Below the pieces are notes generated by a model. That model was not told the origin of the DNA and did not search any database. It worked only from the letters and a program-made list of their open reading frames with translations. Below, piece by piece: positions 3,098 to 63,115 of a DNA stretch of 64,000 bases. The stretch spans positions 131,432 to 195,431 of the forward strand of contig CAWDUQ010000001.1 of NCBI GenBank assembly GCA_963805495.1, read 5' to 3'. This stretch comes from an uncultured Acidobacteriota bacterium. GTDB taxonomy: Bacteria > Acidobacteriota > Thermoanaerobaculia > UBA5066 > Gp7-AA6. Both the position numbers and the translations under genes were made by a program. Positions within the stretch are counted from its first letter, which is position 1, and each line of letters starts with the position of its first letter.

Positions 3098-3173
3098 GCC
3101 TAACGGGTGGCGGGTCTGCGGCGAGTGACGAGCCGAAAGCGCCGAACGAGTCCGCTGCACCCGCGGGTTAGGC
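3098..3173 (-). other. attC: attC site
   Basis: 76-nt GCCTAAC...GTTAGGC imperfect palindrome. Confidence 0.85.
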
Positions 3174-3412
3174 GGCGATCCTACGCCAGCCATGCGACCT
3201 TGAGGCCGTTCACGCTCTCCAGCCTGGCCCGATCCGCGGGCGTCGCACACCCAATCACGGGCATCCTGGCCGCGGTCCTTTTCGTCGACATCGACATTGG
3301 TGAAGCGGTGGGTGGTATTCCGACGTCGTCGATGTTCTTCCCCCGATGACCCGCAGGGACCACCGGATCCCCGGCCTTTCCGGCCGCTATGGAAACGCGC
3401 GCCGTGAGTCCG

Positions 3413-5476
3413 TCAAATCGCCAGTCCAACGTCGCCTTCGAGCACCGATGTCTTCAGCTGCGGGCGGTCTCCGCTCTTCCACAGCGCAGCGGTGAGTACC
3501 ACCCGATACCGGAGGGGCCCCCCGTCGGGCCGTTCGCTGCGCGCAATGGGACGTGGGATGCAGACGAACTCGGTGCGCATTTCATCGTTCGACACCCGGA
3601 CCTTCGCATAACCGTGTCCTCCCAGATCCACGAACTCGAGGTGCGGAGCGAGATCCGGATTGGACAGCGACCGCGCGCGCTCGAGGTCGAAGCTCTTCGC
3701 ATATTCCAGACACGCGCGGACGCCGTGCCTCAGCAACATGTTGAGGGTCCACTCCGGCTTCGCCCCCCCATCCCTGTCGGCCAGAAACAGCGGCCGCAGC
3801 GGAGCGTCCTTCGGAAGCTTGTGCTCGTAGGCCTCCATGGGGCCGGGACTGACGAGTGACGCGCCGACGAAACTCAAGCCGACGGGCGCGAACTTGCCGG
3901 GCGGGAGTTCGGCAGTCGCATATCCGGCCCAGAAGCTGTGGCGGTCGCCCGAGACGATGGCGAAGCCCGTGATCTTCGCGTCGCGAACGACATCGTAGAT
4001 CTCGGCGCGCTCGACGTACGCCGTGCCGTAGTCACCCCCGCCCATCGATGCGTACGTGTCTTTCGGCCACGACTCTTTGGTGAGACCCGCCGGCAGGTTC
4101 TGCGGATCGGCTCGCGAATCCAGAGCGCCCATCGAGTTCGCCCAGATTTTCCAAACCGCGGTTGAGCTCCTGAGCTTGTCCTTGAACCAGGCCTTCTGCT
4201 CCGCGCCGAGAATCGTCTGTGGCGGCGCGCTCCGTTGTGGATTGGCAACGTGCGCATCGTTGAAACGGACCTCGGAAGGGGGAGCGCCGCCATGGAACGC
4301 GCGGCCGCCGTCGAGGACCTGCATGAGAGGCTCGGGAGCCATTCCGATGAACTCGTTGCCGCCGAGCTTCTCGAGAGACGAGTCGCTGAAGGGGTCCGCG
4401 CTCCGATAGCTGTGCTGGTCGGTGATGATCACGTCCAGGTTGTGACCGTACCGCAGCGCCCGGTAGCCCTTGAGGCTGTTGATCGCCGTCAGGTTGTTCG
4501 GCTCCATCCCCAGCCCGTCGCTGTCGAACTCCGTGATGGGGACGTCCTTGACGGCTGGCGGATCGAAACGCTCGAGCGAACCGCTCGGCGCGGCGACACG
4601 GGCGGGGAGGTACTCGAACCAGGCCTGGTTCGCCGCGATCTTGACGCTCTGGCCCGGTTGCTCGATCGGCCCCGCCTTGACGATGCTCTGCCAGCCCTGC
4701 CACGAGAACTCGTGGTTGTCCCAGATGGCGACGAACGGCCAGCGCGCGCGGGCATCCTGGAGGTCGGGATCGGCGAGATAGCCTTTGTAGACGGCCCGGT
4801 AGCCGTCGACGGTCAACGGTATGTGGAAGTTGCCGGCCTTCGGGCCGTCCGGGTACCGCGCCACCTCGTAGATCGTCCGGTCGTAGCGTGTCTTCACCTC
4901 GTCGGGATACTCGACCACCTCGTAGATGAAGTCCCCCAGGTGCAGAACGAAGTCGAGCCGTCGGGCGGCGGGAGCGCGCTCATCTTCGTAGATCATCCGG
5001 CGGTAGGCGTTGAGCTTGCCCTCGTTGACGTCCTGACAGCTCACGAATGCGAAGTTCACCGTGCGCGGATCGTTGGGCAACGGCGCCGTCATCGTGCGGC
5101 CGACCCGGCTGCCGTTCCCGCCGGTGTCGGTGAACCGATACCAGTAAGTGCGCGCCGGCTTGAGTCCGCCAATCAGAACGCGCGCGGTCCAGTCCGCGGC
5201 GCTTGAGACCGGTGCCTGCGCGTGCGCGACGACACGGCGGAATGCCCCATCCTCGGCGACCTCGACGGTCAGGAGCTGGCGCGTGCCCTGCGTAAACGGA
5301 CGCCTCGTCCACAGGATGACGCTGTGCGGATCGGGATCGCCCGAGGCGACCCCCTGGGGATAGAGATCGCGCCGCTCATGCCAGGGGACACGCGATCCGC
5401 GAGCCGGTCCGGCCCATGCGAGCGAAGCACCCATTGCTGCTGCAGTTTTGAGAAAGGATCGGCGGCTGATCGGCAT
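3413..5476 (-). CDS. phoD: PhoD-like alkaline phosphatase / phosphodiesterase, Tat-secreted
   Basis: 687 aa, RRSFLK twin-arginine signal, PhoD metallophosphatase motifs. Confidence 0.85.
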   Translation of the reverse strand: MPISRRSFLKTAAAMGASLAWAGPARGSRVPWHERRDLYPQGVASGDPDPHSVILWTRRPFTQGTRQLLTVEVAEDGAFRRVVAHAQAPVSSAADWTARVLIGGLKPARTYWYRFTDTGGNGSRVGRTMTAPLPNDPRTVNFAFVSCQDVNEGKLNAYRRMIYEDERAPAARRLDFVLHLGDFIYEVVEYPDEVKTRYDRTIYEVARYPDGPKAGNFHIPLTVDGYRAVYKGYLADPDLQDARARWPFVAIWDNHEFSWQGWQSIVKAGPIEQPGQSVKIAANQAWFEYLPARVAAPSGSLERFDPPAVKDVPITEFDSDGLGMEPNNLTAINSLKGYRALRYGHNLDVIITDQHSYRSADPFSDSSLEKLGGNEFIGMAPEPLMQVLDGGRAFHGGAPPSEVRFNDAHVANPQRSAPPQTILGAEQKAWFKDKLRSSTAVWKIWANSMGALDSRADPQNLPAGLTKESWPKDTYASMGGGDYGTAYVERAEIYDVVRDAKITGFAIVSGDRHSFWAGYATAELPPGKFAPVGLSFVGASLVSPGPMEAYEHKLPKDAPLRPLFLADRDGGAKPEWTLNMLLRHGVRACLEYAKSFDLERARSLSNPDLAPHLEFVDLGGHGYAKVRVSNDEMRTEFVCIPRPIARSERPDGGPLRYRVVLTAALWKSGDRPQLKTSVLEGDVGLAI

Positions 5477-5768
5477 GGTCTCACTCCGTCCAGGCTGCAG
5501 TTGGCGTCACCTCAGGGTTCGGACGCGAACGCCCGCTGAGACAAGTACGTACTCTCTGCCCGTAAGTTGCCGTGGCGTGCAACTCGTCGATCAAATGCGA
5601 CGATCCGGCGATCGGAACGCCGGACGTCGTCGCCGGCCTTCCGCTTCGTTCGGCCCATGGCTGGATGGGACTCGCTGAACCGGTTGATACTTCCAGGGCC
5701 GCCTGTTTCAGCCGGAGGGCATTGCTGTCCGACTCCCGAGATGACGCCTGACTGGCCTTCCGACTGTC

Positions 5769-5844
5769 GCCTGACGGCCGGCGGGTCAGCGGTGAGCTCC
5801 CAGCCGAAGCCGAGGAGCGACTCCCCTTCACGCGCGGGTCACGT
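5769..5844 (-). other. attC: attC site (variant GCCTGAC...GGTCACG)
   Basis: 76-nt attC-like palindrome overlapping stop of 5828..6013. Confidence 0.6.
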
Positions 5845-6013
5845 CCTGCACCTGGACATTCTTTGCGAGCGTCTTGAAGCGAGGTCCGTTGGGCGGAACC
5901 ACGGTGATGGTGACGTGACGGCTCTTGCTCTTGTTGATGTCGCGTACGGTGCCGGACTTGCCTTTGTGCGCGCCGGCGACCACGTTACAAAAGGCACCCT
6001 CTTTCAACTTCAT
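5828..6013 (-). CDS. small KOW-like protein (61 aa); paralog at 51296..51463
   Basis: ORF conserved in two cassettes. Confidence 0.45.
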   Translation of the reverse strand: MKLKEGAFCNVVAGAHKGKSGTVRDINKSKSRHVTITVVPPNGPRFKTLAKNVQVQDVTRA

Positions 6014-6045
6014 CTATCCCTCCGCCAATCCGCGTCTCGCGCTGC

Positions 6046-6122
6046 CCGGCGCCCCGCATCACCTGCCGGCGGAAGCGAGCGAAGCCCGCTGTAGCCGGTC
6101 AGCTGCATGCGGAGGTTATGCG
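6046..6122 (-). other. attC: degenerate attC-like site
   Basis: GTCAGCTGCA...GGTTATGCGGC resembles long-class right arm. Confidence 0.4.
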
Positions 6123-6257
6123 GCATTTCGCTGAGACCGCGTCTGACTGTCGTCGTTTTGGACCCACATCGACCCATGGTAGTCGGCCGCTACCTGTCTT
6201 GTTTCCGGGGCGCGGCGACGCCCGGTCGGACGCACAACGCCGCCGGTGTGCCCTTTG

Positions 6258-6786
6258 CTAAGAGTTGTCGGAAAGCTCAATTAAAGCCAGGGTTTCCCCC
6301 CAGGTTCGGTAGATTCCAGAAACCAGGAAGAGCGATGTTGAGCCCGCTACGGCGAAAGGGGCAAAAGCCTCTCCGGCGATCAATCCCGCGCCGCTGCAGA
6401 TCAGGACGACGCTGGCAACGATCGGAACGCCGTTGTGGACGATCCTGTCCATCTTCGTCCTAATGGCCCTGAGATGGAGACCGCTCTGCACGCGGACTAT
6501 ATTAATTCGATAGATTGAGTCCCCAATCCCCATCGCACCGAAAATAACTCCTCTTGGCCAACTGGACCGCTACGGCACCAACACCGCCATGCTCTGGAGG
6601 AGGACCTCGGTGAAGCTGTACATCGCAGGCGTCAGCGATGCATGGTGCGATGTCCAACTTCCGGGAGGTCGACAAGCCGGTGCCAAGCGTGACGACAACA
6701 AACAGCAATACCACAAATACCGAGCCAGCCGCCCCGGTCGTGGTGAAGAAGTCGCTCCAACCGTTAAGCATCAGACTGTTCCTCAA
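6258..6786 (-). pseudogene. possible frameshifted small membrane protein (two overlapping ORFs) in lower-GC cassette
   Basis: ORFs 6502..6786 and 6258..6533 overlap in different frames; both hydrophobic. Confidence 0.3.
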
Positions 6787-6932
6787 CGTTCAGCGCGTTA
6801 TTGTGAAACTGAGACGCCCCCACACTTGGCGACACAAGTGCCGGCATGGAGCAACGACACTCGCACTCCCCAGTGCCAGGCTATCGGCGATACCGGCCGT
6901 TGTGGGACAAATGCCGTGTGACATCTAATGTC

Positions 6933-6992
6933 GCCTGACGCCCGGCATCAGCCGCTGCGCCAAGGGCTGTCCGCTGCACGCTCTTGTTAGGC
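6933..6992 (-). other. attC: attC site, short (60 nt) variant
   Basis: GCCTGAC...GTTAGGC. Confidence 0.65.
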
Positions 6993-7022
6993 CGCAGCAG
7001 GGCATCGACATCACTCCCCTGC

Positions 7023-7661
7023 CTACATCTGCAATAAGAAATAGATGACAAACAGGAGAACTGCGCCCAGACAGGCGCCGTAAAGCAACTTGATCCCCAG
7101 CGACGTGCGAATGCCCTCAGCGGGTGGCGGGAAGGGAATGCTGATCGCCCGTATGGCCGCCAGATAGCCTACCGTCCCCATCGCAATCCTTAACCAGTCA
7201 AACGCAACCCACTGTCGCACCATCGCCCGGATCATCGCAGTATCAGTAGTCGCGCCTGGAGCGCCTCTGGCAACTGCCCACAGCGCAGCGTTGCGTGGCC
7301 AGAACGCGAGGACCGTGAATATCAATGTCGCAAAAATCATTATCGCCGATAGGAACAGCAACAGTCGGTACTTCGGCGGTGTTGCCCAGCCGCTTATCAA
7401 CGCTCCTAGAGAAGCCAGCAGCAGCGCGGCAGAGCTTGGAATGAAAAACTCGCCTGTGTCTACAGGGTATCGCGGCCCGTATGGCAATAAGCTCAATGAC
7501 TCCGGCGGAGAGGCACTCCAGGCGCCCACGAGGACGCGCAGATCGAACAGCTTCGCGCCCAGAAGGACTCCCCAGGCGATTACCAGGATCCACAGAAAGA
7601 ACCGGGTGACGCGCATGCGCGTGAAGATGGTTCTGCTCGAGGGCTCGATTGTGGTAGTCAC
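7023..7661 (-). CDS. integral membrane protein (212 aa)
   Basis: multi-TM hydrophobic ORF. Confidence 0.5.
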   Translation of the reverse strand: MTTTIEPSSRTIFTRMRVTRFFLWILVIAWGVLLGAKLFDLRVLVGAWSASPPESLSLLPYGPRYPVDTGEFFIPSSAALLLASLGALISGWATPPKYRLLLFLSAIMIFATLIFTVLAFWPRNAALWAVARGAPGATTDTAMIRAMVRQWVAFDWLRIAMGTVGYLAAIRAISIPFPPPAEGIRTSLGIKLLYGACLGAVLLFVIYFLLQM

Positions 7662-7816
7662 GATTCCTCCTCGCGCGCCCTAACGCTCCGCTTCAGGCGC
7701 GGGCCGCGCAGCGGGATCACGAGCGGTTCGACCATGAGCGCCCGCATGGGCCCGCCCATCACCGACGAAGAGTCTACGAGCGCGCTGATTCAAATGGTCC
7801 ATTGTTGATCTCCGGC

Positions 7817-7888
7817 GCCTAACGATGCCGAATCATCCGCGCGACGCCAAGCGACTCGCGGCGCGTCGGCTGCATTCGGAGGTTAGAC
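7817..7888 (-). other. attC: attC site, divergent (72 nt, core GTTAGAC)
   Basis: GCCTAAC...GGTTAGAC. Confidence 0.6.
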
Positions 7889-7904
7889 GTCAACGCCGGG
7901 ATGG

Positions 7905-8837
7905 TCAGGCCTGCGGACGGGCGTCGATCCCGAACTCTGCTTTGACTCGGGCGTACCAGGCATCGTCGTCGAGCGATCCCCAGGCCACCCACTCCTCGTC
8001 GGTCATCGCTTTGCGCCAGGTGAGAAATGGCACGGCGTCCGGTCCCACTGGATGTCGGAGCTGCCAGGTGCCGCTGATGGCGATCTCAAGGACTCTGTCC
8101 GCCACCAGAGACGGCAACGCTGGGCTCTTCAACACGCTGATGTAGAACGCGGCCATGCGATTCTGCTGCGGATAGTGGGAGGCGCCTTGCGGGCCGCTGA
8201 TGCGCCGGGCCATCGGCGTGTCGACGATGCCCGGCTCGACAATCGCAACACGGATGTTGAACGGCTTGGCCTCCTGGGCCAGGCATTCGCTGAGCGCCTC
8301 CACGGCGAATTTGGACGCCGCGTACGCCCCCTGCGGTGACACGGCGATCCGTCCGCCGATGGATGCCACGTTGATGATGCAACCGCTTCGACGTCGTCGC
8401 ATGGCTGGCAGCACAGCCTGAATGCAGCGAAGCGTCCCGAAATAGTTGGTCTCCATGACGGAACGGAAGTCCGCGAGCGGAAGCTCCTCGACAGAACCCA
8501 TCCGCTCGATGCCCGCGTTGTTGACGAGCACGTCGATTGGCCCCATCTCCTGCGCGATGCGGCCGACAGCGTCCCTGACGGACCGGTCGTCATCGACATC
8601 CATCATGTAGACGGCAATCGCCAGGTTTTCGTCGCCAGCAACCTTCGCAAGTGCGGGCGCCCTGGCGGGGTCGCGCATCGTCGCTGCGACCTTGTGGCCC
8701 GCTCGGCCGAATGCCAGCGCCGTCGCGAAGCCTATGCCGCTACTGGTGCCCGTAATCAGAATGTTTGCCAAGTGTCTTGTCCTCTCCAGTCTCCTGGTTA
8801 CCGTTATTGTAACGTGAGGCGATCTTGTTGAAGTCAA
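7905..8837 (-). CDS. short-chain dehydrogenase/reductase (SDR)
   Basis: TGTSSGIG Rossmann motif, YxxxK. Confidence 0.85.
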   Translation of the reverse strand: MTSTRSPHVTITVTRRLERTRHLANILITGTSSGIGFATALAFGRAGHKVAATMRDPARAPALAKVAGDENLAIAVYMMDVDDDRSVRDAVGRIAQEMGPIDVLVNNAGIERMGSVEELPLADFRSVMETNYFGTLRCIQAVLPAMRRRRSGCIINVASIGGRIAVSPQGAYAASKFAVEALSECLAQEAKPFNIRVAIVEPGIVDTPMARRISGPQGASHYPQQNRMAAFYISVLKSPALPSLVADRVLEIAISGTWQLRHPVGPDAVPFLTWRKAMTDEEWVAWGSLDDDAWYARVKAEFGIDARPQA

Positions 8838-8838
8838 C

Positions 8839-8915
8839 GTCTAACGGGCGACGGGTCGGCGGCGAGCGCCGTAGCGAGGCGCAGGCGCGAGTCCGCTGCA
8901 CCCCCGCGGTTAGGC
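8839..8915 (-). other. attC: attC site (GTCTAAC variant)
   Basis: 77-nt. Confidence 0.8.
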
Positions 8916-9145
8916 GGCGTGCCGAGGTTCAGGTACGGTGCCATGGCGGTACGACCAGGCCAACCGGAAGGGGCATTCCTCGGTAGAAAGAATAATCGCC
9001 AATCGGAAAGCCCGAATATGCCGTGATCCGTTGCTCCGCGAGCATGCCGCAAGGGAAGGCGAGCACCAGATAAGCAACGACGATCAATACGGACCTTTTC
9101 CAAGGAGAGGTGCCTGCCTCGCGACGTGCGCCGAGCTACCACCGC

Positions 9146-9228
9146 GCCCTCGGACGCCGGGCTCGCGCCCACAGACCTACGGCGACAAGGACGGAGCGCC
9201 GCGAGTCCGCTGCAACCGCATGTTAGGC
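9146..9228 (-). other. attC: attC site, degenerate left arm
   Basis: right arm GAGTCCGCTGCAACCGCATGTTAGGC. Confidence 0.5.
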
Positions 9229-9540
9229 GGCCGCACATTCTGCGACTCTGGACCGAGCTGAACTCTCCCGCGCGAGGCCCGCAGCTTCCGCCACGATGCG
9301 ACGAATAGCATCCTGACTGGGTCGAGGCTTTCGCCGCGTTCGCTCATCCGCGTGCTCAGGTTTAAGACACCCCGATCAACTCACCGGTTCCCATCCTCTT
9401 GATGGATCTAGGGTTGCGTGCGCCGAGCTGCTGCCTCGGCTGTCCCCGAGAAGAGAAGCGCGCCCTCGGGGACGACCGCCGTCGAAAACGCAGCCCGCGG
9501 TTGCGTTCCCCCTTGCATGCCGCCAGTCCGTGTGCTACAT

Positions 9541-9560
9541 ACTGAACCGAATGGTTCAGT
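9541..9560 (+). promoter_or_regulatory. perfect dyad ACTGAACCGAATGGTTCAGT overlapping arsR start, candidate ArsR operator
   Basis: 9-2-9 palindrome spanning ATG at 9551. Confidence 0.5.
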
Positions 9561-9916
9561 ATTCGCGCGCCCACCTCGATGCCTCGTTCGCCGCGCTCTC
9601 GGATGCCACCCGACGCGGCGTTCTGGAGCAGCTGGGACGTTCCGACGCTTCGATCACGGACCTTGCCGAGAAGTTCCACATGACCCTCACGGGCATCAAG
9701 AAGCACGTCGGCGTCCTGGAGCAGTCCGGGCTCGTCACCACGGAGAAGCTCGGGCGCGTGCGGACCTGCAAGCTCGGCCCGCGCCGATTGGAGGAAGAGA
9801 CGGCATGGCTCGAGAGGTACCGCCATCTCTGGGACGCACGCTTCGACGAGTTGGACAAGGTCGTCGAGGAATTGAAACGAAAGGAGAAGGTCGATGGACG
9901 CAAGAAGAGAGAGTGA
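9551..9916 (+). CDS. arsR: ArsR/SmtB-family transcriptional regulator (track GTG start 9530 also possible)
   Basis: LSDATRRGVLEQL...HTH motif. Confidence 0.85.
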   Translation: MVQYSRAHLDASFAALSDATRRGVLEQLGRSDASITDLAEKFHMTLTGIKKHVGVLEQSGLVTTEKLGRVRTCKLGPRRLEEETAWLERYRHLWDARFDELDKVVEELKRKEKVDGRKKRE

Positions 9917-10409
9917 GGCCACACCGATGAAGAACCGCACGACTGTGGAACGGAAGTCCGAGCGTGAAATCGTCGTCACGCGAACTTTCAACGGTCCGGC
10001 GCGCATCGTGTTCGAGGCGTGGACCAAGCCCGAGTTGTTCAAGCAGTGGTGGGTGCCGAAGTCGATGGGAATGTCCCTGCTTTCCTGCGAAATGGATGTT
10101 CGTGTCGGGGGCAGGTACCGTTTGGAGTTCGCACACGGGGACTCACAGGCGGCGTTCTTCGGCACGTACAAGGAAGTAACACCGCACTCGCGCCTCGTCT
10201 GGACCAATGAGGAAAGTGACGAGGGATCCGTCACGACGGTGACCTTCGCGGAAACAGGCGGCAAGACGTTGCTCGTCATGCACGAGCTCTATCCCTCGAA
10301 GGAAGCTCTCGACGCTGCCGGCACCGGAGCTGCGGACGCAATGAGCGAGACGTTCGAGCAACTCGACGAGCTTCTCGTCGTCCTCGGCGCGAGCGTGGGA
10401 CGGTCATGA
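9894..10409 (+). CDS. SRPBCC / Aha1-domain protein (typical ArsR partner)
   Basis: 171 aa, AHSA1-like fold motifs; overlaps arsR stop. Confidence 0.8.
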   Translation: MDARRESEATPMKNRTTVERKSEREIVVTRTFNGPARIVFEAWTKPELFKQWWVPKSMGMSLLSCEMDVRVGGRYRLEFAHGDSQAAFFGTYKEVTPHSRLVWTNEESDEGSVTTVTFAETGGKTLLVMHELYPSKEALDAAGTGAADAMSETFEQLDELLVVLGASVGRS

Positions 10410-10575
10410 ACTCGTCGATCGCGCGGTCGTCGGCTGCCTCGCTGATTGGTCCCGACCTCGATCCCCCGTGGCACACCGTCTGCGAGTGGGCAATCGGTCC
10501 TCACGGCTGACCTCGGCGCGCTGCTCGCCCCGGCCGGCATGGCTCACATGCTGGCCGGGGCTTCCTGAAAGCAGA

Positions 10576-10651
10576 TCGTGCATCGGTCCGCAGCCGGGCC
10601 AAGGGCCGAGGCGAAGCCGAGCAGCGACTCCGCTGCACCCGGGGGTCAGGC
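10576..10651 (-). other. attC: attC site, degenerate (core GTCAGGC)
   Basis: right arm GACTCCGCTGCACCCGGGGGTCAGGC. Confidence 0.5.
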
Positions 10652-10712
10652 CCGGTAGATTCGCGCCGCGCCTCGGTCAATTCGCGGGCGCGACGGCTGG
10701 TAGACTGGCCGT

Positions 10713-11186
10713 ATGAAAACTCGACGCAGCAGGCTCGCTCTAGCCACCTGTCTTCTCTTCGTGACGGGCAGGGCGCTCGCCCAGGATTTGCCGAAGCTCG
10801 TCACCAGGGCGGACGTCGAGAAAGCCGCCCACGCGAAGTTCAAGGATGGCTGGCAGCCGATGCCGACGCAGGTCTCGTTCGCAGAAGATGGCGGCAACCT
10901 GCAGGTCAGCGTGAGCGTCGAGCCCCGTGAAGCGCAAAGCACCGTGCGGACCTGGGAAGCGACAATGAAGAAGATGAAGCCGGGCACCAAGGTCGACACC
11001 GTTCCGGGGCTGGGCAAAGACGCGATCTTCGTCAGCACCCGCCCGGACTCGGGTGCGCTCTATGTCGACTTCGACAAGCCGCTCGTGCAGCTCAACGTCG
11101 GCGTCGCCGGTGCCAAGACCCCCGAGCAAGCAAAGCAGCTCGCCCTCGACCTCGGCAAAGTGATCAGCCCACGGATCGGAAAATAG
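10713..11186 (+). CDS. secreted hypothetical protein (signal peptide)
   Basis: MKTRRSRLALATCLLFVTGRALAQD leader. Confidence 0.55.
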   Translation: MKTRRSRLALATCLLFVTGRALAQDLPKLVTRADVEKAAHAKFKDGWQPMPTQVSFAEDGGNLQVSVSVEPREAQSTVRTWEATMKKMKPGTKVDTVPGLGKDAIFVSTRPDSGALYVDFDKPLVQLNVGVAGAKTPEQAKQLALDLGKVISPRIGK

Positions 11187-11216
11187 TGTCTGGCGCGCAG
11201 GCTGCCGAACCCGCGG

Positions 11217-11678
11217 CTATGCGTCGGCGTACGCTCTTTCCAGTGCCGCCACGTCGAGCTTGACCATCTTCATCATCGCTTCCATCACAGCCTGCACTTT
11301 CTTCCGGTTCTTGTCGCCGATGAGCTCCATGAAGCGTCTCGGGACGATCTGCCAGGTGATGCCGAACTGATCCGTGATCCAGCCACACTGCGATGGGGTT
11401 GCGCCGGCGCTGATGAGCTTGTTCCAGTACTCGTCAACTTCTTCCTGGTCTTTGCAGTCGACAAAGAGCGAGAAACCTTCGGAGAATTTGAAGTACGGGC
11501 CGCCGTTGTAGCCCATGAAGGACTGACCACCGATGACGAATTCGGCGGAAGTGATCGGGCCGTCCTTGCCAGTGCGAGCGACGGTCTTGATCTCAGAGTC
11601 CGGGAACGTGGTGGTGTAGAACGCCATGGCAGCTTCGAGCTGGCCGTTGAACATCAGGAAAGGTGTCACTTTGGTCAT
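11217..11678 (-). CDS. VOC-family (glyoxalase/PhnB-like) protein
   Basis: 153 aa, PhnB/3-demethylubiquinone MT-like domain motifs. Confidence 0.7.
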   Translation of the reverse strand: MTKVTPFLMFNGQLEAAMAFYTTTFPDSEIKTVARTGKDGPITSAEFVIGGQSFMGYNGGPYFKFSEGFSLFVDCKDQEEVDEYWNKLISAGATPSQCGWITDQFGITWQIVPRRFMELIGDKNRKKVQAVMEAMMKMVKLDVAALERAYADA

Positions 11679-11706
11679 CTGTGTGTCTCCTTTGTTTTCG
11701 GTCTCC

Positions 11707-11782
11707 GTCTAACGGTTGGCGGGGCAGCGGCGAGCGCCGTAGCGAAGCGCAGGCGCGAGTCCGCTGCACCCGCGGGTTAGGC
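11707..11782 (-). other. attC: attC site (GTCTAAC)
   Basis: 76-nt. Confidence 0.85.
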
Positions 11783-13012: not shown

Positions 13013-13130
13013 GCCTAACGGGTGGCGGGTCAGCTGCGGGCGCCCAACCGCCACCAGGTCCCTTGACTCACCACAGCGTCCCTTCCGCCATTTCTGCATG
13101 GCGACCGTCAGCTGCACCCGCGGGTTAGGC
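13013..13130 (-). other. attC: attC site, long class (118 nt)
   Basis: GCCTAACGGGTGGCGGGTCAGCTGCGGGCGCC...GTCAGCTGCACCCGCGGGTTAGGC. Confidence 0.85.
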
Positions 13131-21071: not shown

Positions 21072-21147
21072 CGCCTAACGGGTGGCGGGTCAGCGGCGAG
21101 CGCCGTAGCGAAGCGTAGGCGCGAGTCCGCTGCACCCGCGGGTTAGG
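21072..21147 (-). other. attC: attC site
   Basis: 76-nt. Confidence 0.85.
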
Positions 21148-21362: not shown

Positions 21363-21480
21363 GCCTAACGGGTGGCGCATAAGCTGCGGGCGCCCGACCG
21401 CCATCAGATCCCTGAACACACCACGAGTTTCCCTTGCGACGGAGTGCAGGGCGACCGTCAGCTTCATGCGCGTGTTAGGC
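21363..21480 (-). other. attC: attC site, long class
   Basis: 118-nt. Confidence 0.85.
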
Positions 21481-21843
21481 GCCCCTTCCCTTAAGGGCTT
21501 ACACGCCACGCGACACCTCGCTCACCTCAGACCACGACCACGGGATGCGCCGGCTGGCGCGCGCCTCGGATTGTCCTCCCTCTCGCCACTCGCGCGCCAG
21601 AGCGGCGCCGATTAGGACGGGGGGCGGGCCGACAGATAAGCCGTCAGCTGCCACGTTCCCAGAAAATGCCATGCTGCGCCCCGCTCCTGGCGCCGAGGTA
21701 GTCGGCCCGCATCCCGGAGGCGGACGGCGCGCAGAACTTTTACCGATTACGCCAGACTCTCCCCTCCGGACACAATCGCAAGCCTCGCGATCGTCGACGC
21801 GACTATTCAGCCCGCGCGCCGGCCGCCGTCTTGAGTCCGAAGC
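21481..21843. repeat. family A cassette body (no confident ORF)
   Basis: 1 of 12 paralogs. Confidence 0.75.
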
Positions 21844-21919
21844 GCCTAACGGGCGGCGGGTCAGCGGCGAGTGACGAGCCGAAGGCGAGGAACGAGTCCG
21901 CTGCACCCGCGGGTTAGGC
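21844..21919 (-). other. attC: attC site
   Basis: 76-nt. Confidence 0.85.
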
Positions 21920-22130: not shown

Positions 22131-22248
22131 GCCTAACGGGTGGCGCATAAGCTGCGGGCGCCCGGAAGTGACCAGATCCCTGGCCTCGCCACGAGCTTCC
22201 CTTCCGACGGAGTGCATGGCGACCGTCAGCTTCATGCGCGGGTTAGGC
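22131..22248 (-). other. attC: attC site, long class
   Basis: 118-nt. Confidence 0.85.
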
Positions 22249-22611
22249 GCCCCTTCCCTTGAGGGTTTACACGCCAAGCGACACCTCGCTCACACCAGAC
22301 CTTGACCACGGGATGCGCCGGCTGGCGCGCGCTACGGATTGTCCTCCCTCTCGCCACTCGCGCGCCAGAGCGGCGCGGATCAAGCCGGGGGGCGGGCCGA
22401 CAGATAAGTCGTCTGCTGCCACGCCTCCAGAACTTGCCACCCTTCGCCCCGCTCCTGGAGCCGAGATAGTCGGCCCGCATCCCGGAGGCGGACGGCGCGC
22501 AGAACTTCTACCGATTACGCCAGCCTCTCCCCTCCGGACACAATCGCGAGCCTCGTGATCGTGGACGCGACTATTCAGCCCGCGCGCCGGCCGCCGTCTT
22601 GAGTCCGAAGC
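22249..22611. repeat. family A cassette body
   Basis: paralog. Confidence 0.75.
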
Positions 22612-22687
22612 GCCTAACGGGTGGCGGGTCAGCGGCGAGCTCCGAGGCGAAGCCGAGGAGCGAGTCCGCTGCACCCGCGGGTTAGGC
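22612..22687 (-). other. attC: attC site
   Basis: 76-nt. Confidence 0.85.
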
Positions 22688-23191: not shown

Positions 23192-23309
23192 GCCTAACGG
23201 GTGGCGGGTCAGCTGCGGGCGCCCCGCAGAGATGAAACCCCTAGCCTCGCGACAACTTCCCTTGCGCGGCAATGCCAGGGCGACCGTCAGCTGCACCCGC
23301 GGGTTAGGC
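23192..23309 (-). other. attC: attC site, long class
   Basis: 118-nt. Confidence 0.85.
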
Positions 23310-23672
23310 GCCCCTTCCCTGTCGGGTTTACACGCCACGCGACACCTCGCTCGCACCAGGCCTCGACCACGGGATGTGCCGGCTGGCGCGCGCTACGGAT
23401 TGTCCTCCCTCTCGCCACTCGCGCGCCAGAGCGGCGCCGATTAAGACGGGGGGCGGGCCGACAGATAAGCCGTCTGCTGCCACGCCTCCAGAAAATGCCA
23501 CGCTGCGCCCCGCTCCTGGAGCCGAAATAGTCGGCCCGCATCCCGCAGGCGGACGGCGCGCAGAACTTGTACCGATTACGCCAACCTTTCCCCTCCGGAC
23601 ACAATCGCGAGCTTCGCGATCGTTGACGCAACTATCCAGCCCGCGCGCCGGCCGCCGTCTTGAGTCCGAAGC
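23310..23672. repeat. family A cassette body
   Basis: paralog. Confidence 0.75.
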
Positions 23673-23748
23673 GCCTAACGGGTGGCGGGTCAGCGGCGAG
23701 CGCCGTAGCGAAGCGTAGGCGCGAGTCCGCTGCACCCGCGGGTTAGGC
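23673..23748 (-). other. attC: attC site
   Basis: 76-nt. Confidence 0.85.
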
Positions 23749-25216: not shown

Positions 25217-25334
25217 GCCTAACGGGTGGCGGGTCAGCTGCGGGCGCCCGACCGCCACGATGCCCCTCGACTCGCCACAACCATCCCTCTCGCCAAACCG
25301 CATGGCGACCGTCAGCTGCACCCGCGGGTTAGGC
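25217..25334 (-). other. attC: attC site, long class
   Basis: 118-nt. Confidence 0.85.
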
Positions 25335-25697
25335 GCCCCTTCCCTGTCGGGTTTACACGCCACGCGACACCTCGCTCGCACCAGGCCTACACCATGGGAT
25401 GCGCCGGCTGGCGCGCGCCACGGATTGGCCTCCCTCTCGCCACTCGCGCGCCAGAGCGGCGCGGATTACGACGGGGGGCGGGCCGACTGTTGAGTCGTCT
25501 GATGCCCTACGAGATCCTCGACCCACGCTGCGCCCTGCTCCTGGAGCCGAGATAGTCGGCCCGCATCCCGGAGGCGGACGGCGCGCAGAACTCCTACCGA
25601 TCACGCCAACCTCTCCCCTCCGGACACAATCGCATGCCTCGCGATCGTCGACGCGACTATTCAGCCCGCGCGCCGGCCGCCGTCTTACGTGCGAAGC
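25335..25697. repeat. family A cassette body (identical to 37206-37568)
   Basis: paralog. Confidence 0.75.
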
Positions 25698-25773
25698 GCC
25701 TAACGGGTGGCGGGTCAGCGGCGAGTGACGAGCCGAAGGCGAGGAACGAGTCCGCTGCACCCGCGGGTTAGGC
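25698..25773 (-). other. attC: attC site
   Basis: 76-nt. Confidence 0.85.
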
Positions 25774-25987
25774 GGCGCTTCACCGCCACGATGACCTGCA
25801 GCCGAAAGCCTTCCGAAACCTACGCCCATGACGGCGCTTCTCCGGGAGCCACGACAGCCCCAAACATAGAGACACCGCAACTCGACCGGCGTTCACAACT
25901 ATCGTTGCCGACCCGAGCGCCTTGCCACTCTGGAAAGGCCCTGGGAAGGAGGGCGTGACTCGGGGACCCCATTTCCCCGGAACGCCC
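25774..25987. repeat. family B cassette body
   Basis: paralog. Confidence 0.75.
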
Positions 25988-26101
25988 GCCTAACGGGTGG
26001 CGGGTCAGGTGCAAGCGCATGCCGTAGATGCCTGCGCGCTCGCGGCCGCGGACCAATCGCCTCGCTGTCATCGCGCTTGCAGCTGCACCCGCGGGTTAGG
26101 C
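25988..26101 (-). other. attC: attC site, long variant (114 nt, distinct centre)
   Basis: GCCTAAC...GTTAGGC. Confidence 0.75.
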
Positions 26102-28545: not shown

Positions 28546-28663
28546 GCCTAACGGGTGGCGGGTCAGCTGCGGGCGCCCGACCGCCACGATGCCCCTCGAC
28601 TCGCCACAACCTTCCCTCTCGCCAAACCGCATGGCGACCGTCAGCTGCACCCGCGGGTTAGGC
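28546..28663 (-). other. attC: attC site, long class
   Basis: 118-nt. Confidence 0.85.
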
Positions 28664-29016
28664 GCCCCTTCCCTGTCGGGTTTACACGCCACGCGACACC
28701 TCGCTCACCTCAGACCGTTACCACGGGATGCGCCGGCTGGCGCGCGCTACGAATTGTCCTCCCTCTCGCCACTCGCGCGCCAGAGCGGCGCCAATTACGA
28801 CGGGGGGCGGGCCGACTCTTGAGTCGTCTGATGCCCAGCCAGACCCACGAGCCACGCTGCGCCCTGCTCCTGGAGCCGAGATAGTCGGCCCGCATCCCGC
28901 AGGCGGACGGCGCGCAGAACTCTTACCGATGACGCCCAACTCTCCCCTCCGGACACAATCGCCAGCCTGGCGATCGTCGACGCGACTATTCAGCCCGCGC
29001 GCCGGCCGCCGTCTTA
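28664..29016. repeat. family A cassette body
   Basis: paralog. Confidence 0.75.
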
Positions 29017-29092
29017 CATCCGAAGCGCCTAACGGGTGGCGGGTCAGCGGCTCGTGAGGCGCCGAAGGCGCCGAACGAGTCCGCTGCACCCG
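29017..29092 (-). other. attC: attC site
   Basis: 76-nt. Confidence 0.85.
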
Positions 29093-30823: not shown

Positions 30824-30941
30824 GCCTAACGGGTGGCGCATAAGCTGCGGGCGCCCGGAAGAGGCCAGATCCCTAGTTTCGCCACGAGCTTCCCTACCGA
30901 CCGAGTGCATGGCGACCGTCAGCTTCATGCGCGTGTTAGGC
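30824..30941 (-). other. attC: attC site, long class
   Basis: 118-nt. Confidence 0.85.
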
Positions 30942-31304
30942 GCCCTCACTCATTCGGGTTTACACGCCACGAGACACCTCGCCCGCACCAGGCCTCGACC
31001 ACGGGATGCGCCGGCTGGCGCGCGCTACGAATTGTCCTCCCTCTCGCCACTCGCGCGCCAGAGCGGCGCGGATTAAGCCGGGGGGCGGGCCGACTGTTAA
31101 GTCGTCTGATGCCCAACCGAATCCTCGAGCCACGCTGCGCCCCGCTTCTGGAGCCGAGATAGTCGGCCCGCATCCCGGAGGCGGCCGGCGCGCAGAACTT
31201 CTACCGATTACGCCGGCCTCTCCCCTCCGGACACAATCGCCTGCCTCGCGATCGTCGACGCGACTATTCAGCCCGCGCGACGGCCGCCGTCTCGAGTCCG
31301 AAGC
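30942..31304. repeat. family A cassette body
   Basis: paralog. Confidence 0.75.
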
Positions 31305-31380
31305 GCCTAACGGGTGGCGGGTCAGCGGCGAGCTCCGAGCCGAAGGCGAGGAGCGAGTCCGCTGCACCCGCGGGTTAGGC
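31305..31380 (-). other. attC: attC site
   Basis: 76-nt. Confidence 0.85.
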
Positions 31381-37087: not shown

Positions 37088-37205
37088 GCCTAACGGGTGG
37101 CGGGTCAGCTGCGGGCGCCCGACCGCCACGATGCCCCTCGACTCGCCACAACCATCCCTCTCGCCAAACCGCATGGCGACCGTCAGCTGCACCCGCGGGT
37201 TAGGC
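37088..37205 (-). other. attC: attC site, long class
   Basis: 118-nt. Confidence 0.85.
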
Positions 37206-37568
37206 GCCCCTTCCCTGTCGGGTTTACACGCCACGCGACACCTCGCTCGCACCAGGCCTACACCATGGGATGCGCCGGCTGGCGCGCGCCACGGATTGGC
37301 CTCCCTCTCGCCACTCGCGCGCCAGAGCGGCGCGGATTACGACGGGGGGCGGGCCGACTGTTGAGTCGTCTGATGCCCAACGAGATCCTCGACCCACGCT
37401 GCGCCCTGCTCCTGGAGCCGAGATAGTCGGCCCGCATCCCGGAGGCGGACGGCGCGCAGAACTCCTACCGATCACGCCAACCTCTCCCCTCCGGACACAA
37501 TCGCATGCCTCGCGATCGTCGACGCGACTATTCAGCCCGCGCGCCGGCCGCCGTCTTACGTGCGAAGC
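37206..37568. repeat. family A cassette body (identical to 25335-25697)
   Basis: paralog. Confidence 0.75.
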
Positions 37569-37644
37569 GCCTAACGGGTGGCGGGTCAGCGGCGAGCTCC
37601 GAGCCGAAGGCGAGGAGCGAGTCCGCTGCACCCGCGGGTTAGGC
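37569..37644 (-). other. attC: attC site
   Basis: 76-nt. Confidence 0.85.
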
Positions 37645-43277: not shown

Positions 43278-43395
43278 GCCTAACGGGTGGCGCATAAGCT
43301 GCGGGCGCCCGACCGCCATCAGATCCCTGAACACACCACGAGCTTCCCTTCCGACGGAGTGCAGGGCGACCGTCAGCTTCATGCGCGTGTTAGGC
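43278..43395 (-). other. attC: attC site, long class
   Basis: 118-nt. Confidence 0.85.
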
Positions 43396-43758
43396 GCCCT
43401 CCCTCCTTCGGGTTTACACGCCACGCGACACCTCGCTCACCTCAGGCCGCGACCACAGGATGCGCCGGCTGGCGCGCGCCTCGGATTGTCCTCTCTCTCG
43501 CCACTCGCGCGCCAGAGCGGCGCGGATTACGACGGGGGGCGGGCCGACAGATAAGTCGTCTGATGCCTCGCCCCCACAAAATGCCACGCTGCGGTTCGTT
43601 CCTGGAGCCGAGATAGTCGGCCCGCATCCCGGAGGCGGACGGCGCGCAGAACTTTTACCGATTACGCCAGCCTCTCCCCTCCGGACACAATCGCAAGCCT
43701 GTCGATCGTCGACGAGACTACTCAGCCCGCGCGCCGGCCGCCGTCTTGAGTCCGAAGC
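43396..43758. repeat. family A cassette body
   Basis: paralog. Confidence 0.75.
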
Positions 43759-43876
43759 GCCTAACGGGTGGCGGGTCAGGTGCGGGCGCCCCACCGCCAC
43801 GAGGTTCCTGGACTGCCCATCATCTTCCCTCTCGCCAAACCGCATGGCGACCGTCAGCTGCACCCGCGGGTTAGGC
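43759..43876 (-). other. attC: attC site, long class
   Basis: 118-nt. Confidence 0.85.
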
Positions 43877-44254
43877 GCCCTATCCCTTACGGATTTACAC
43901 GCCACGCGACACCTCGCTCGCCCCAGGCTCTGACCGCGGGATGCGGCGGGCTGGCGCGCCCACGCCTCGCCTTCCCTTTCGCTCCTCGCGCGCCAGGCCG
44001 ACGCGGATCACGACGGGGGGCGGGCCGACTCTTGAACCGTCTGAAGCCACGGCCTCGCCCCATGACAGATCCGCCCTGTTCCTGACACCACGATCGTCGG
44101 CCCGCATCCCGGAGGCGGTCGGCGCGCTGGTGACCACGTCGAATCCGCCAACATTCACCTTCCGCCACCATCCGACGTGCGGCTGCTGCCACGAACCCTG
44201 CCCAAGCCTGCTGCTTTCCGACAAAGCGCCGGCCGCCGTCTTAAGTGCCATTGC
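43877..44254. repeat. family A cassette body (divergent copy)
   Basis: paralog about 70% identity. Confidence 0.6.
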
Positions 44255-44330
44255 GCCTAACGGGTGGCGGGTCAGCGGCGCGTGAAGAGCCGAAGGCGAT
44301 GAACGCGTCCGCTGCACCCGCGGGTTAGGC
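44255..44330 (-). other. attC: attC site
   Basis: 76-nt. Confidence 0.85.
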
Positions 44331-47085: not shown

Positions 47086-47203
47086 GCCTAACGGGTGGCG
47101 GGTCAGCTGCGGGCGCCCTGCAGAGTTGAGACCCCTGACCTCGCGACAACTTCCCTTGTGCGGCAACGCCAGGGCGACCGTCAGCTGCACCCGCGGGTTA
47201 GGC
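47086..47203 (-). other. attC: attC site, long class
   Basis: 118-nt. Confidence 0.85.
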
Positions 47204-47566
47204 GCCCCTTCCCTGTCGGGTTTACACACCACGCGACACCTCGCTCGTACCAGGCCTCGTCCACGGGATGCGCCGGCTGGCGCGCGCCTCGGATTGTCGT
47301 CCCTCTCGCCACTCGCGCGCCAGAGCGGCGCGGATTGAGCCGGGGGGCGGGCCGACTGTTGAGTCGTCTGATGCCAGGCCGAGCCCGATCGCCACGCTGC
47401 GTCCTGCTCCTGGAGTCGAGGTAGTCGGCCCGCATCCCGGAGGCGGACGGCGCGCAGAACTTCTACCGATTACGACCAACTCTCCCCTCCGGACACAATC
47501 GCAAGCCCCGCGATCGTCGACGCGACTATTCAGCCCGCGCGCCGGCCGCCGTCTTACGTCCGAAGC
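47204..47566. repeat. family A cassette body
   Basis: paralog. Confidence 0.75.
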
Positions 47567-47642
47567 GCCTAACGGGTGGCGGGTCAGCGGCGAGCGCCGT
47601 AGCGAAGCGTAGGCGCGAGTCCGCTGCACCCGCGGGTTAGGC
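47567..47642 (-). other. attC: attC site
   Basis: 76-nt. Confidence 0.85.
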
Positions 47643-54827: not shown

Positions 54828-54945
54828 GCCTAACGGGTGGCGGGTCAGCTGCGGGCGCCCGACCGCCACGATGGCCCTTGACTCGCCACGAACTTCCCTC
54901 TCGCCAAACCGCATGGCGACCGTCAGCTGCACCCGCGGGTTAGGC
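54828..54945 (-). other. attC: attC site, long class
   Basis: 118-nt. Confidence 0.85.
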
Positions 54946-55308
54946 GCCCTATCCCTGTCGGGTTTACACGCCACGCGACACCTCGCTCACCTCAGACCCC
55001 GACCACGGGATGCGCCGGCTGGCGCGCGCTACGGATTGTCCTCCCTCTCGCCACTCGCGCGCCAGAGCGGCGCGGATTACGACGGGGGGCGGGCCGACAG
55101 ATAAGCCGTCTGGATGCCGTGCCCATGCCCGAGCCTGACTGCGCTCTGCTCCTGGAGCCCAACTAGTCGGCCCGCATCCCGCAGGCGGACGGCGCGCAGA
55201 ACTCCTACCGATTACGCCAACCTCTCCCCTCCGGACACAATCGCCTGCCTCGTGACCGTCGACGCGACTATCCAGCCCGCGCGCCGGCCGCCGTCTTACG
55301 TGCGAAGC
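54946..55308. repeat. family A cassette body
   Basis: paralog. Confidence 0.75.
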
Positions 55309-55384
55309 GCCTAACGGGTGGCGGGTCAGCGGCGAGCGCCGTAGCGAAGCGTAGGCGCGAGTCCGCTGCACCCGCGGGTTAGGC
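55309..55384 (-). other. attC: attC site
   Basis: 76-nt. Confidence 0.85.
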
Positions 55385-55598: not shown

Positions 55599-55716
55599 GC
55601 CTAACGGGTGGCGCATAAGCTGCGGGCGCCCGACCGCCATCAGATCCCTCGCCTCGCTACGGCGTCCCTTCAACCACTTCTGCATGGCGACCGTCAGCTT
55701 CATGCGCGGGTTAGGC
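55599..55716 (-). other. attC: attC site, long class
   Basis: 118-nt. Confidence 0.85.
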
Positions 55717-56079
55717 GCCCTTTCCCTTTCGGGTTTACACGCCACGCGACACCTCGTTCACCTCAGGCCTCCACCACGGGATGCGCCGGCTGGCGCGCGA
55801 TACGGATTGTCCTCCCTTTGGCCACTCGCGCGCCAGAGCGGCGCGGATTACGACGGGGGGCGGGCCGACAATTGCGTCGTCTGTCGCCCAGGCCGATACC
55901 CGAGCCACGATGCGCCCTGCTTCTGGAGCCGCGATAGTCGGCCCGCATCCCGCAGGCGGCCGGCGCGCAGAACTTGTACCGATTGCGCCGAGCTTTCCCC
56001 TCCGGACACAATCGCGAGCCTCGCGATCGTGGACGCGACTACTCAGCCCGCGCGCCGGTCGCCGTCTTACGTCAGAAGC
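55717..56079. repeat. family A cassette body
   Basis: paralog. Confidence 0.75.
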
Positions 56080-56155
56080 GCCTAACGGGTGGCGGGTCAG
56101 CGGCGCGCGAGGAGCCGAAGGCGATGAACGAGTCCGCTGCACCCGCGGGTTAGGC
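56080..56155 (-). other. attC: attC site
   Basis: 76-nt. Confidence 0.85.
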
Positions 56156-56367: not shown

Positions 56368-56443
56368 GCCTAACGGGTGGCGGGTCAGCGGCTCGTGAGG
56401 CGCCGAAGGCGCCGAACGAGTCCGCTGCACCCGCGGGTTAGGC
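56368..56443 (-). other. attC: attC site (first, intI-proximal)
   Basis: 76-nt. Confidence 0.85.
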
Positions 56444-57014: not shown

Positions 57015-58211
<1,197 letters not shown>

Positions 58212-62221: not shown

Positions 62222-63115
62222 CGGCGGATGCGCAGCGGAGCGGGGATGAGCGCGTTCTCGTCGCAGGGGCGACGCGCCGCCGGGGCCCGGTTACGCCCGG
62301 TCCGGCCCCCGTCGTAGGGGCGGCCCTTGTGGCCGCCCTCATCCGCCACCGACGATGGGCGGGCGGGGATGAACCCCGCCCCTACACCCGGGGGCCGGAT
62401 GCTGGGGGACGGACCGTGGCCGCCCTCATCCGCCACCGACAGCGCGAACGACTCTCCCATCCCCGTCCGCGCCCGCCCGTCCTTCTCGAGCGTCAGCCGC
62501 ACGACCACGCCTTCGAGCAGCCGCGGTGATTTTCCCGCTCCGCGCCAGATCGCGCGCGCGTTCTGTGCGGAGACGACCGACTCGGCGGCGACGCCGCTGA
62601 CGCGATAGGGCGCGAGCACGAGGAGCGCCGCTCGCCGGTCGCGGGCCGCGCGCGTCAGTCGCACCCACGCGGCGTCGGGCACGAAGCGGCCGCGCACGGG
62701 CGCAAGCCCCAGGTCGACGACGACGAGCGGGAAGCCCGCCGCGAGAAGCATCTCCGCGCTCGCGACGGCTTCCTTCAGCTTCGACGGCCGCACCCAGAGG
62801 AGACGCTCGAGCTCGACGCCGGCTTCCTCGGCCGACTGCGGATCGAGGTGACCGCCGAGATCGACGAGCGCCGCGGCTTCGCCGGCGGAGGTCATGGCGG
62901 CGAGCGACGCGATGCCGATCGAGAAGCGGCCGCACGAGCGCCGTCCCGAGATCTCCGTCAGCGCGCCGCGCGGGAGCCCGCCGGAGAGCAGCCGGTCGAG
63001 CACGGGGACTTTCGTCGCGAACGGGTTGCGCGCGTCGGAAAGCGACGGCAGCTCCGACGCGCGTGAAAGCCGGGCTCCCGATTCCTCCAGCAGCCGCTCG
63101 ATCGCCGCAGCGCCC
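62218..63115 (-). CDS. imuA: ImuA-like (RecA/SulA-fold) protein; C-terminal tail encoded by hairpin repeats
   Basis: LPSLSDARNPFATKVPVLDRLLSGGLPRGALTEISG motif; precedes imuB with 4-nt overlap. Confidence 0.6.

Follow-up and report, generated by a model that had tools for sequence, protein, structure and literature searches.

The stretch of DNA analysed here, referred to as the window, comprises 64,000 nucleotides (nt) from an uncultured Acidobacteriota bacterium and is dominated by a single very large integron cassette array. The 22-nt left box of the attC site occurs 93 times, always on the plus strand and between positions 1808 and 56389, giving ∼ 93 co-oriented attC sites. When left and right boxes were paired, nearly all sites measured 76 nt and a minority 118 nt. 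The array ends at position 56443, where the integron integrase gene intI adjoins it on the right (Table 1). The intI product matches the Pfam families Phage_int_SAM_4 and Phage_integrase, and an imuB-like and an imuA-like gene lie beyond it. Relatives of the integrase at 70–97% identity are frequent in metagenomes; the named ones, including the closest, come from Thermoanaerobaculia. The array is a sedentary chromosomal integron of an Acidobacteriota genome. This analysis concerns family A, a group of 12 paralogous cassettes in this array, which an earlier note on the same DNA had put forward as a candidate RNA or small-protein cassette.

Family A is distributed over a 35-kb part of the array. 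Its units have a length of exactly 481 nt in 11 copies and of 496 nt in the divergent one; in plus-strand coordinates each consists of a 118-nt attC immediately to the left of a 363-nt body (one body has 378 nt). All 12 copies exist where the earlier note had placed them, apart from the right border of the fifth body, given as 28664–29016, which actually spans 28664–29026 (363 nt). There is no 13th copy in the window; the chance expectation for a conserved family-A 40-mer is 0. However, the note had the long attC preceding each body, which is a reading of the wrong strand. Cassette sense is the minus strand of the window, on four concordant lines of evidence: the longest open reading frame (ORF) fills most cassettes on the minus strand; intI, on the right, shares the orientation of the cassettes, as in the related loci L020–L025; the extra base in the attC L box bulges from the arm predicted with the minus strand as top strand; and the 118-nt attC stays to the left of the family-A body regardless of the left neighbour. 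The 118-nt attC is therefore family A's own 3′ attC.

The borders of the unit are set by its youngest pair of copies, 25223–25703 and 37094–37574, which differ by one substitution between the left attC core and the point where the right attC begins, and have unrelated neighbours beyond this interval. Since identity ends at the attC borders, the unit is TTAGGC, body and 118-nt attC, read on the minus strand. Every copy is bordered on both sides by GCCTAAC ... GTTAGGC core sites, which agree with the R″ (RYYYAAC) and R′ (GTTRRRY) consensus of a cassette with one attC at its 3′ end. As single-stranded DNA the attC folds into an imperfect hairpin, in which an unpaired spacer separates the 7-bp R box from an L box that has a single bulged base. 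Its stem occurs in two haplotypes, GGGTGCAGC..GCTGACCC and GCATGAAGC..GCTTATGC, split 9:9 among 18 copies and differing by three perfectly compensated pairs; these haplotypes (e.g. 25217–25334 versus 21363–21480) are a clean natural case of covariation. The family-A unit is copied and moved whole by attC recombination, presumably catalysed by IntI. Three diverged relatives (L002b–d) retain the body blocks but have ordinary 76-nt attC sites, so the body lineage is older than the current long attC.

Table 1. Coordinates of family A, its predicted elements and the integrase gene (window positions).
Feature	Position	Strand	Remarks
Family-A reference cassette	25223..25703	-	TTAGGC, 363-nt body and own 118-nt attC with the recombination G as last base
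Reference-copy attC, 118 nt	25217..25334	-	R″ GCCTAAC, R′ GTTAGGC, L box with one bulged base, 76-nt variable centre
Family-A copy	21369..21849	-	
Family-A copy	22137..22617	-	
Family-A copy	23198..23678	-	
Family-A copy	28552..29032	-	
Family-A copy	30830..31310	-	
Family-A copy	37094..37574	-	99.8% identity to 25223..25703; cassette-precise duplication
Family-A copy	43284..43764	-	
Divergent family-A cassette	43765..44260	-	496 nt, ∼ 77% identity, indels not multiples of three
Family-A copy	47092..47572	-	
Family-A copy	54834..55314	-	Fifth cassette from attI
Family-A copy	55605..56085	-	Third cassette from attI
H1 5′ arm (GGCGGCCGGCGCGCG)	25667..25681	-	Cassette positions 23–37; partner 25573..25587
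Small hairpin Ha (ACGATCGCGA GGC TTGCGATTGT type)	25626..25648	-	Cassette positions 56–78
H1 3′ arm	25573..25587	-	Cassette positions 117–131
H2 5′ arm (CGGGATGCGGGCCGAC)	25555..25570	-	Cassette positions 134–149; partner 25472..25487
Hypervariable core within the H2 loop	25507..25522	-	Cassette positions 182–197, ∼ 16 nt, mean pairwise difference 0.57
H2 3′ arm (GTCGGCCCGCCCCCCG)	25472..25487	-	Cassette positions 217–232; helix compensated in L002d
H3	25401..25462	-	Cassette positions 242–259 with 287–303; outer GCGCCG/CGGCGC, inner CTGGCGCGCG/CGCGCGCCAG
Best small-ORF candidate	25353..25526	-	57 codons, GTG start (cassette position 178), conserved TAA stop; judged not coding
Integron integrase intI	57015..58211	-	TIGR02249, 434 bits (cut-off 265); same orientation as cassettes

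Pairwise identity within the main family ranges from 82 to 99.8% (mean 87%), and the differences are clustered. The variation falls into 111 runs, compared with 165 ± 8.7 in permutations, and its lag-1 autocorrelation is 0.46 against a permutation maximum of 0.20, which bears out the earlier description of conserved blocks interrupted by hypervariable stretches. In the body, 281 of 361 columns (∼ 78%) have a mean nucleotide diversity (π) of 0.019, whereas π is 0.27 in the attC centre. The most variable segment is a core of ∼ 16 nt that is close to saturation (Table 1), and the hypervariable region does not change in length. Covariation was confined to the attC stem; the core showed none with the other variable blocks or the attC centre, and it has no 13-nt match, complementary or identical, elsewhere in the window. 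Nor does the family qualify as a diversity-generating retroelement, for which adenine-specific variation would be expected together with a template repeat and a reverse transcriptase: no reverse transcriptase was found among the ORFs examined with Pfam, there is no template copy outside the family, and the core contains substitutions of all kinds.

For 7 of the 12 window copies the nearest relative lies in another Acidobacteriota genome or metagenome-assembled genome (MAG; loci L001–L004 and L007), and there is only one young pair. Recent amplification therefore does not explain the conservation. From the contrast in π and the clustering of the variation we conclude that selection acts directly on the nucleotides of the conserved blocks; purifying selection at this level covers ∼ 78% of the body. 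The earlier note had also called the amplification to 12 copies remarkable, which is overstated, since Vibrio cassettes reach 45 copies (PMC1382264) and the copies here are mostly old lineages common to other genomes. That the family consists of decaying pseudogene cassettes, or of a recent neutral amplification with mutation hot spots, is largely refuted and in our judgement highly improbable. Degenerated genes do occur among the gene-less cassettes of Vibrio (10.1101/2023.11.21.568050), and the sole difference within the youngest pair (25508 versus 37379) falls in the 16-nt core, a possible sign of a hot spot. Being one event, it lacks significance and cannot decide between a mutation hot spot and relaxed constraint, both of which it fits. 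However, no frame of family A has a homologue, most copies predate the species or have passed between them, and the body blocks stayed conserved where the attC centre diverged. Diverged relatives, moreover, keep the same blocks and compensate helix H2 (see below).

The body carries no convincing ORF, as the earlier note had stated. Three or more reading frames are indeed open at once. However, the GTG-initiated 109-codon frame said to be open in all copies is interrupted in 3 of the 12, and its GTG sits in a box common to all attC sites; the ATG of the second frame singled out (MATVS...) is absent in 4 of 12 copies. The start codon of the long sense frame is not conserved among family-A copies. 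Variable columns are spread over the codon phases as 42/44/37, with no periodicity. For 14 gap-free copies the pooled ratio of non-synonymous to synonymous polymorphism (pN/pS) is 0.90–1.03 over the whole body and 0.72–1.14 in its conserved 3′ half, considering all six frames. The same calculation gives 0.19 for intI compared with L003 and 0.38 for a coding cassette compared with L004; a value for intI compared with L002, which probably drew on a wrong ORF, was set aside. Candidate frames are broken in L007a, L002b–d, w28552 and w54834; they are shifted in L007a and L002b–d, and the indels of L002b–d are not multiples of three. No family-A frame has a Pfam or NCBIfam match, and 5.8 billion predicted proteins, searched with a query that joined all six frames, contained no match. 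Protein coding was thus rejected in all six frames on periodicity, pN/pS, broken frames and the lack of homologues, and the conclusion that the body is non-coding is well supported. With no third-position excess and with conservation beyond what recent duplication explains, the finding of the earlier note stands on the two points that it had itself named as decisive. Family A is very probably a non-coding cassette family under nucleotide-level selection.

ORFs of 57–133 codons are nevertheless present on both strands of family A, above the length (150 bp or 210 bp) below which a cassette counts as lacking an ORF (Boucher 2006; Blanco 2024). This threshold was made for AT-rich Vibrio and does not transfer to family A, because chance ORFs are expected at 67% GC. 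The best candidate among them is the 57-codon frame listed in Table 1. It could be translated or, alternatively, transcripts of the two strands could pair in cis as sense and antisense, so that family A would be a small-protein cassette or resemble a type I toxin–antitoxin system; in the antisense version the hypervariable segment would keep the 12 paralogues orthogonal. Its GTG start has AGGAG 11 nt upstream and is present in 13 of 14 full-length copies, the full length of 57 codons is likewise kept in 13 of 14, and the stop is conserved even in the divergent copy and in L002b. The encoded N-terminus would be hypervariable, and the strictly constant length of the hypervariable region also fits a reading frame. 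Overlapping RNA constraints could flatten codon periodicity, and toxin–antitoxin cassettes are typically multi-copy in large arrays. Against this, pN/pS in the frame is 1.08 and third positions are the least variable. The frame has no start in w54834, meets a premature stop in w28552, is shifted in L007a and is not kept in L002b, L002c or L002d. The protein collection includes the L004 genome, in which no gene was called over L004a, the single copy checked. The predicted peptide is rich in R, A, G and P and is not hydrophobic; a type I toxin, by contrast, is small, conserved and usually hydrophobic, its ORF is under purifying selection and it is paired with an antisense RNA, and we rejected this assignment. 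Taken together, we regard a translated or toxin–antitoxin-like cassette as improbable.

RNAalifold, applied to 16 copies, recovered four helices (H1, Ha, H2 and H3), and an inverted-repeat scan found the same arms. H1, H2 and H3 are long GC-rich helices of 14–16 bp. H2 is a 14-bp helix, CGGG..GCGGGCCGAC / GTCGGCCCGC..CCCG, that encloses 67 nt, within which the hypervariable core is predicted to be unpaired. The inverted repeat GGCCGAC...GTCGGCC of the earlier note is real and forms part of this helix, but the variable segment that it surrounds had been put at 45 nt instead of ∼ 16 nt. H3 encloses a conserved 27-nt purine-rich loop. The second hairpin proposed earlier, ATCGCGA..TCGCGAT, corresponds to Ha. 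It exists, with several G-U changes as had been claimed and one compensatory C-G, but one of its pairs is mismatched in 8 of 21 copies. An alternative 8-bp pairing, GGGATGCG/CGCATCCC, was set aside, as the diverged copies do not keep it. Over 21 copies, 93.8% of the pairs are standard, and 15 pairs show two-sided changes, compared with 2.8 ± 1.5 in shuffles and 4–10 when the partners were slid. The clearest case is L002d (∼ 61% identity), where CGCC..GAGCCGGC / GCCGGCTC..GGCG replaces CGGG..GGGCCGAC / GTCGGCCC..CCCG in H2 by four compensated pairs; H3 is partly compensated in L002c. Minimum free energy z-scores were negative in all eight copies tested (−1.2 to −3.5).

Several observations weigh against reading family A as a structured RNA. 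All double changes come from three diverged copies of one locus, L002b, L002c and L002d. H2 never varies within the main family, and helices that are invariant there carry no covariation information. It is doubtful whether L002c keeps H1, and L002b has another, perfect 9-bp helix (GGCTGCAGA/TCTGCAGCC) in the place of H3. The mean z-scores are modest and the same on both strands (−1.9 and −1.8), and counts of G-U versus A-C favour neither strand. The whole window has no Rfam 15 match at the gathering threshold; the only match below it is a chance hit to a microRNA model (20.7 bits versus 100). Consensus scans detected no σ70-type promoter on either strand and no intrinsic terminator. With neither an Rfam family nor a consensus promoter or terminator, transcription of family A is an assumption. 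The family is also small, with ∼ 22 copies in all from four Acidobacteriota MAGs (contigs CAWGOM010000008.1, CAVZNW010000004.1, CAWEMP010000011.1 and CAWCPN010000002.1), one metagenome contig and this window, and it is absent beside intI from ∼ 10 kb of array in each of L021, L022, L023 and L025. These related arrays were reached via IntI homologues, as was L024, which offered no array because its contig stops at intI. Of the candidate functions in the earlier note, the non-coding part is thus upheld, and the RNA reading is plausible but unproven. Separately, we note that L002b (L002 4402–4901) carries several short insertions with a common string, GGTCGCAGCG, and that no transfer RNA or transfer-messenger RNA was found.

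Nucleotide-level conservation with no coding signature would also suit a DNA site. Family A could be a promoter or regulatory-DNA cassette, in which a promoter or protein-binding site drives or gates downstream cassettes deep in the array. Promoter activity has been shown for several gene-less cassettes, in Treponema (Tansirichaiya 2019) and in Vibrionaceae (Blanco et al. 2023/2024; 10.1101/2023.11.21.568050), and most gene-less cassettes of Vibrio superintegrons have it on the sense strand. According to the latter study, in-silico promoter prediction fails for such cassettes, and small RNAs were not excluded there. Like these cassettes, family A is gene-less and scattered through a large array, its 12 copies being dispersed along it, and intI is co-oriented with the cassettes as in the Treponema integrons. 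A candidate element is the σ54-type −24/−12 string TGGCGCG-N4-TGGC in H3 (TGGCGCGCGAGTGGC at 25439–25453, on the cassette-sense strand), for which upstream inverted repeats could be activator sites. The string (TGGCRCGNNNNTKGC) occurs 11 times in the window, always in family A, against 0.46 occurrences expected. However, this match was post hoc; it is off consensus at −14 and lost in L002c, L002d and w43765. The promoter activity in Treponema and Vibrionaceae is experimental, whereas family A has no detectable σ70-like promoter, and activity of the Vibrio cassettes is tied to AT-richness while the family-A body has 67% GC. The constraint on family A also spans far more sequence than a promoter requires: ∼ 50 nt would suffice, leaving ∼ 280 constrained positions and three helices of 14–16 bp unexplained. 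A role as promoter or regulatory DNA is therefore unlikely in our view, though still to be reckoned with.

Family A was found solely within attC arrays. A pattern scan of metagenomes returned 14 chance matches in coding genes and one real locus, L007, so that the body outside an integron context, for which the earlier note had proposed a search, did not turn up there. Viral, plasmid and phage collections contained no copy, and the body has no relation to other sequence in the window. Such confinement would suit a selfish or recombination element. Here the body, as folded single-stranded DNA, would aid extrusion or folding of the long attC or bind IntI or host factors, and would thereby raise its own rate of excision and re-insertion; copy number would then reflect drive, not host benefit. 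The recent cassette-precise duplication fits this, as do the copies close to attI, which are the third and fifth cassettes here and the second and third in L002. Both strands fold equally well, and sequence alone does not reveal whether a structure is that of RNA or of single-stranded DNA, as noted for attC-like motifs (Weinberg et al., PMC5737381). Selfishness was proposed by Boucher et al. for paralogous non-coding cassettes (PMC1382264). On the other hand, body and long attC are separable, since L002b–d combine the body blocks with a 76-nt attC, and a purely structural role leaves the conserved 27-nt H3 loop unexplained. The attC alone is known to be required for cassette mobility, and we know of no precedent for a cassette body that stimulates recombination. 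We consider a selfish element of this kind decidedly unlikely.

We suggest instead that family A is a non-coding (‘gene-less’) cassette family of the Acidobacteriota sedentary chromosomal integron, the conserved sequence of which includes helices H1, H2 and H3 together with purine-rich loops. H2 clamps the 67-nt loop, and the ∼ 16-nt core in that loop is unconstrained or diversifying. What would act is a folded single strand of the body, and the most probable candidate is RNA transcribed with the array in cassette sense. We give this reading about an even chance. The RNA may influence the expression or stability of array transcripts or, alternatively, may act in trans, with the variable loop giving specificity. 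Copy number would result from IntI-mediated re-insertion and the retention of diverged variants. A more specific version is a structured-RNA family in which a scaffold of H1–H3 and purine-rich loops presents a single-stranded hypervariable guide or specificity segment of 16–35 nt, held by the 14-bp clamp, with one target per paralogue. This we regard as a long shot. If it were true, the targets might include transcripts of phage or host, other cassettes or the RNA's own antisense partner, and the integron would shuffle and stockpile programmable RNAs.

Short variable patches in otherwise near-identical paralogues are known from other systems. Sib/Ibs type I toxin–antitoxin loci and plasmid copy-control RNAs consist of near-identical paralogues in which such patches set partner specificity. 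Family-A paralogues are likewise near-identical and differ mainly in short patches but, unlike Sib/Ibs, they lack a hydrophobic toxin ORF and show neither signs of convergent transcription nor selection at the protein level. Another comparison is sRNA-Xcc1, a non-coding RNA on a Xanthomonas integron cassette common to several species (Chen et al. 2011, as cited in 10.1101/2025.06.18.660453). As described in the citing work, that cassette also bears symE and its RNA runs against the direction of the array, in contrast to the sense proposed for family A. Family A is longer and multi-copy, and we found no sequence or Rfam match between the two.

The closest known counterparts are the paralogous non-coding cassettes of Vibrio, which are highly paralogous, conserved between species and confined to lineages, show no synonymous-site pattern and were proposed to be selfish elements or regulators (Boucher et al. 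2006, PMC1382264). Family A shares with them the lack of a genuine ORF, an attC of its own, many paralogues per array, close homologues only in related species, and conservation over the whole length with no synonymous-site pattern. It differs in its Acidobacteriota host, in having no sequence similarity to them and in being GC-rich (67%) instead of AT-rich; because of this GC content it holds spurious ORFs of > 100 codons. Three GC helices of 14–16 bp and a sharply delimited hypervariable core have not been reported for the Vibrio families. Family A is therefore an Acidobacteriota addition to the known class of gene-less, paralogous integron cassettes. It is distinctive in its GC-rich host, ∼ 280 constrained nt, three long helices, helix-clamped hypervariable loop and dedicated long attC.

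Gene-less cassettes make up 6–49% of Vibrio superintegrons, and their role is partly understood, some being promoters. Since families A and B (below) account for 33 of the ∼ 93 cassettes in the window, and family A at least has no sign of coding, such cassettes are not confined to Vibrio. With its nucleotide-level constraint, long helices, bounded variable loop and cross-species alleles, family A is a clean object for asking whether gene-less cassettes act as RNA or single-stranded DNA rather than as promoters. It also illustrates that in GC-rich genomes frames of > 100 codons, and rules that define gene-less cassettes by ORF length, are meaningless unless substitution patterns are tested.

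Family B comprises 21 paralogous cassettes of 287–291 nt (body 211–215 nt, 76-nt attC) at 21079–56373, for example 25704–25993 on the minus strand, and is unrelated to the family-A body. It has a conserved ATG and a candidate frame of ∼ 50 codons, and its conserved blocks are broken by hypervariable blocks with small indels. Family B fills 11 of the 24 positions that flank family-A copies. In a related MAG, seven consecutive cassettes of ∼ 295 nt lie immediately beside attI (L023 11500–13744), so runs of very short cassettes are a trait of this integron lineage. Two further long attC sites, 13013–13130 (118 nt) and 25988–26101 (114 nt), belong to cassettes outside family A, the bodies of which measure 617 and 253 nt. 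In the distal part of the array, 8.6 kb (3104–11712) contains degenerate attC boxes only and larger genes, including those for a PhoD-like phosphatase with a twin-arginine translocation (TAT) signal, a short-chain dehydrogenase and an anthrone-oxygenase-like protein.

At the other end, intI is transcribed towards the array in the orientation of the cassettes (the ‘inverted’ integron type), and likewise in the related loci L020–L025. The neighbourhood imuA-imuB-marC-(PIN/antitoxin)-intI is kept across these Acidobacteriota MAGs. In the window, the imuB-like and imuA-like ORFs contain four copies (60451–60599, 61519–61667, 61711–61859 and 62253–62401) of a palindromic repeat that resembles repetitive extragenic palindromes (REP) and bacterial interspersed mosaic elements (BIME). 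Units of ∼ 37 nt (GTCGTAGGGGCGGCCCTTGTGGCCGCCCTCC) are arranged in a 149-nt composite that reads in frame as PVVGAGLVPALPSSVAEEGGHKGRPYDGS. Their position suggests either that insertions are tolerated in this coding sequence or that the ORFs were mis-called.

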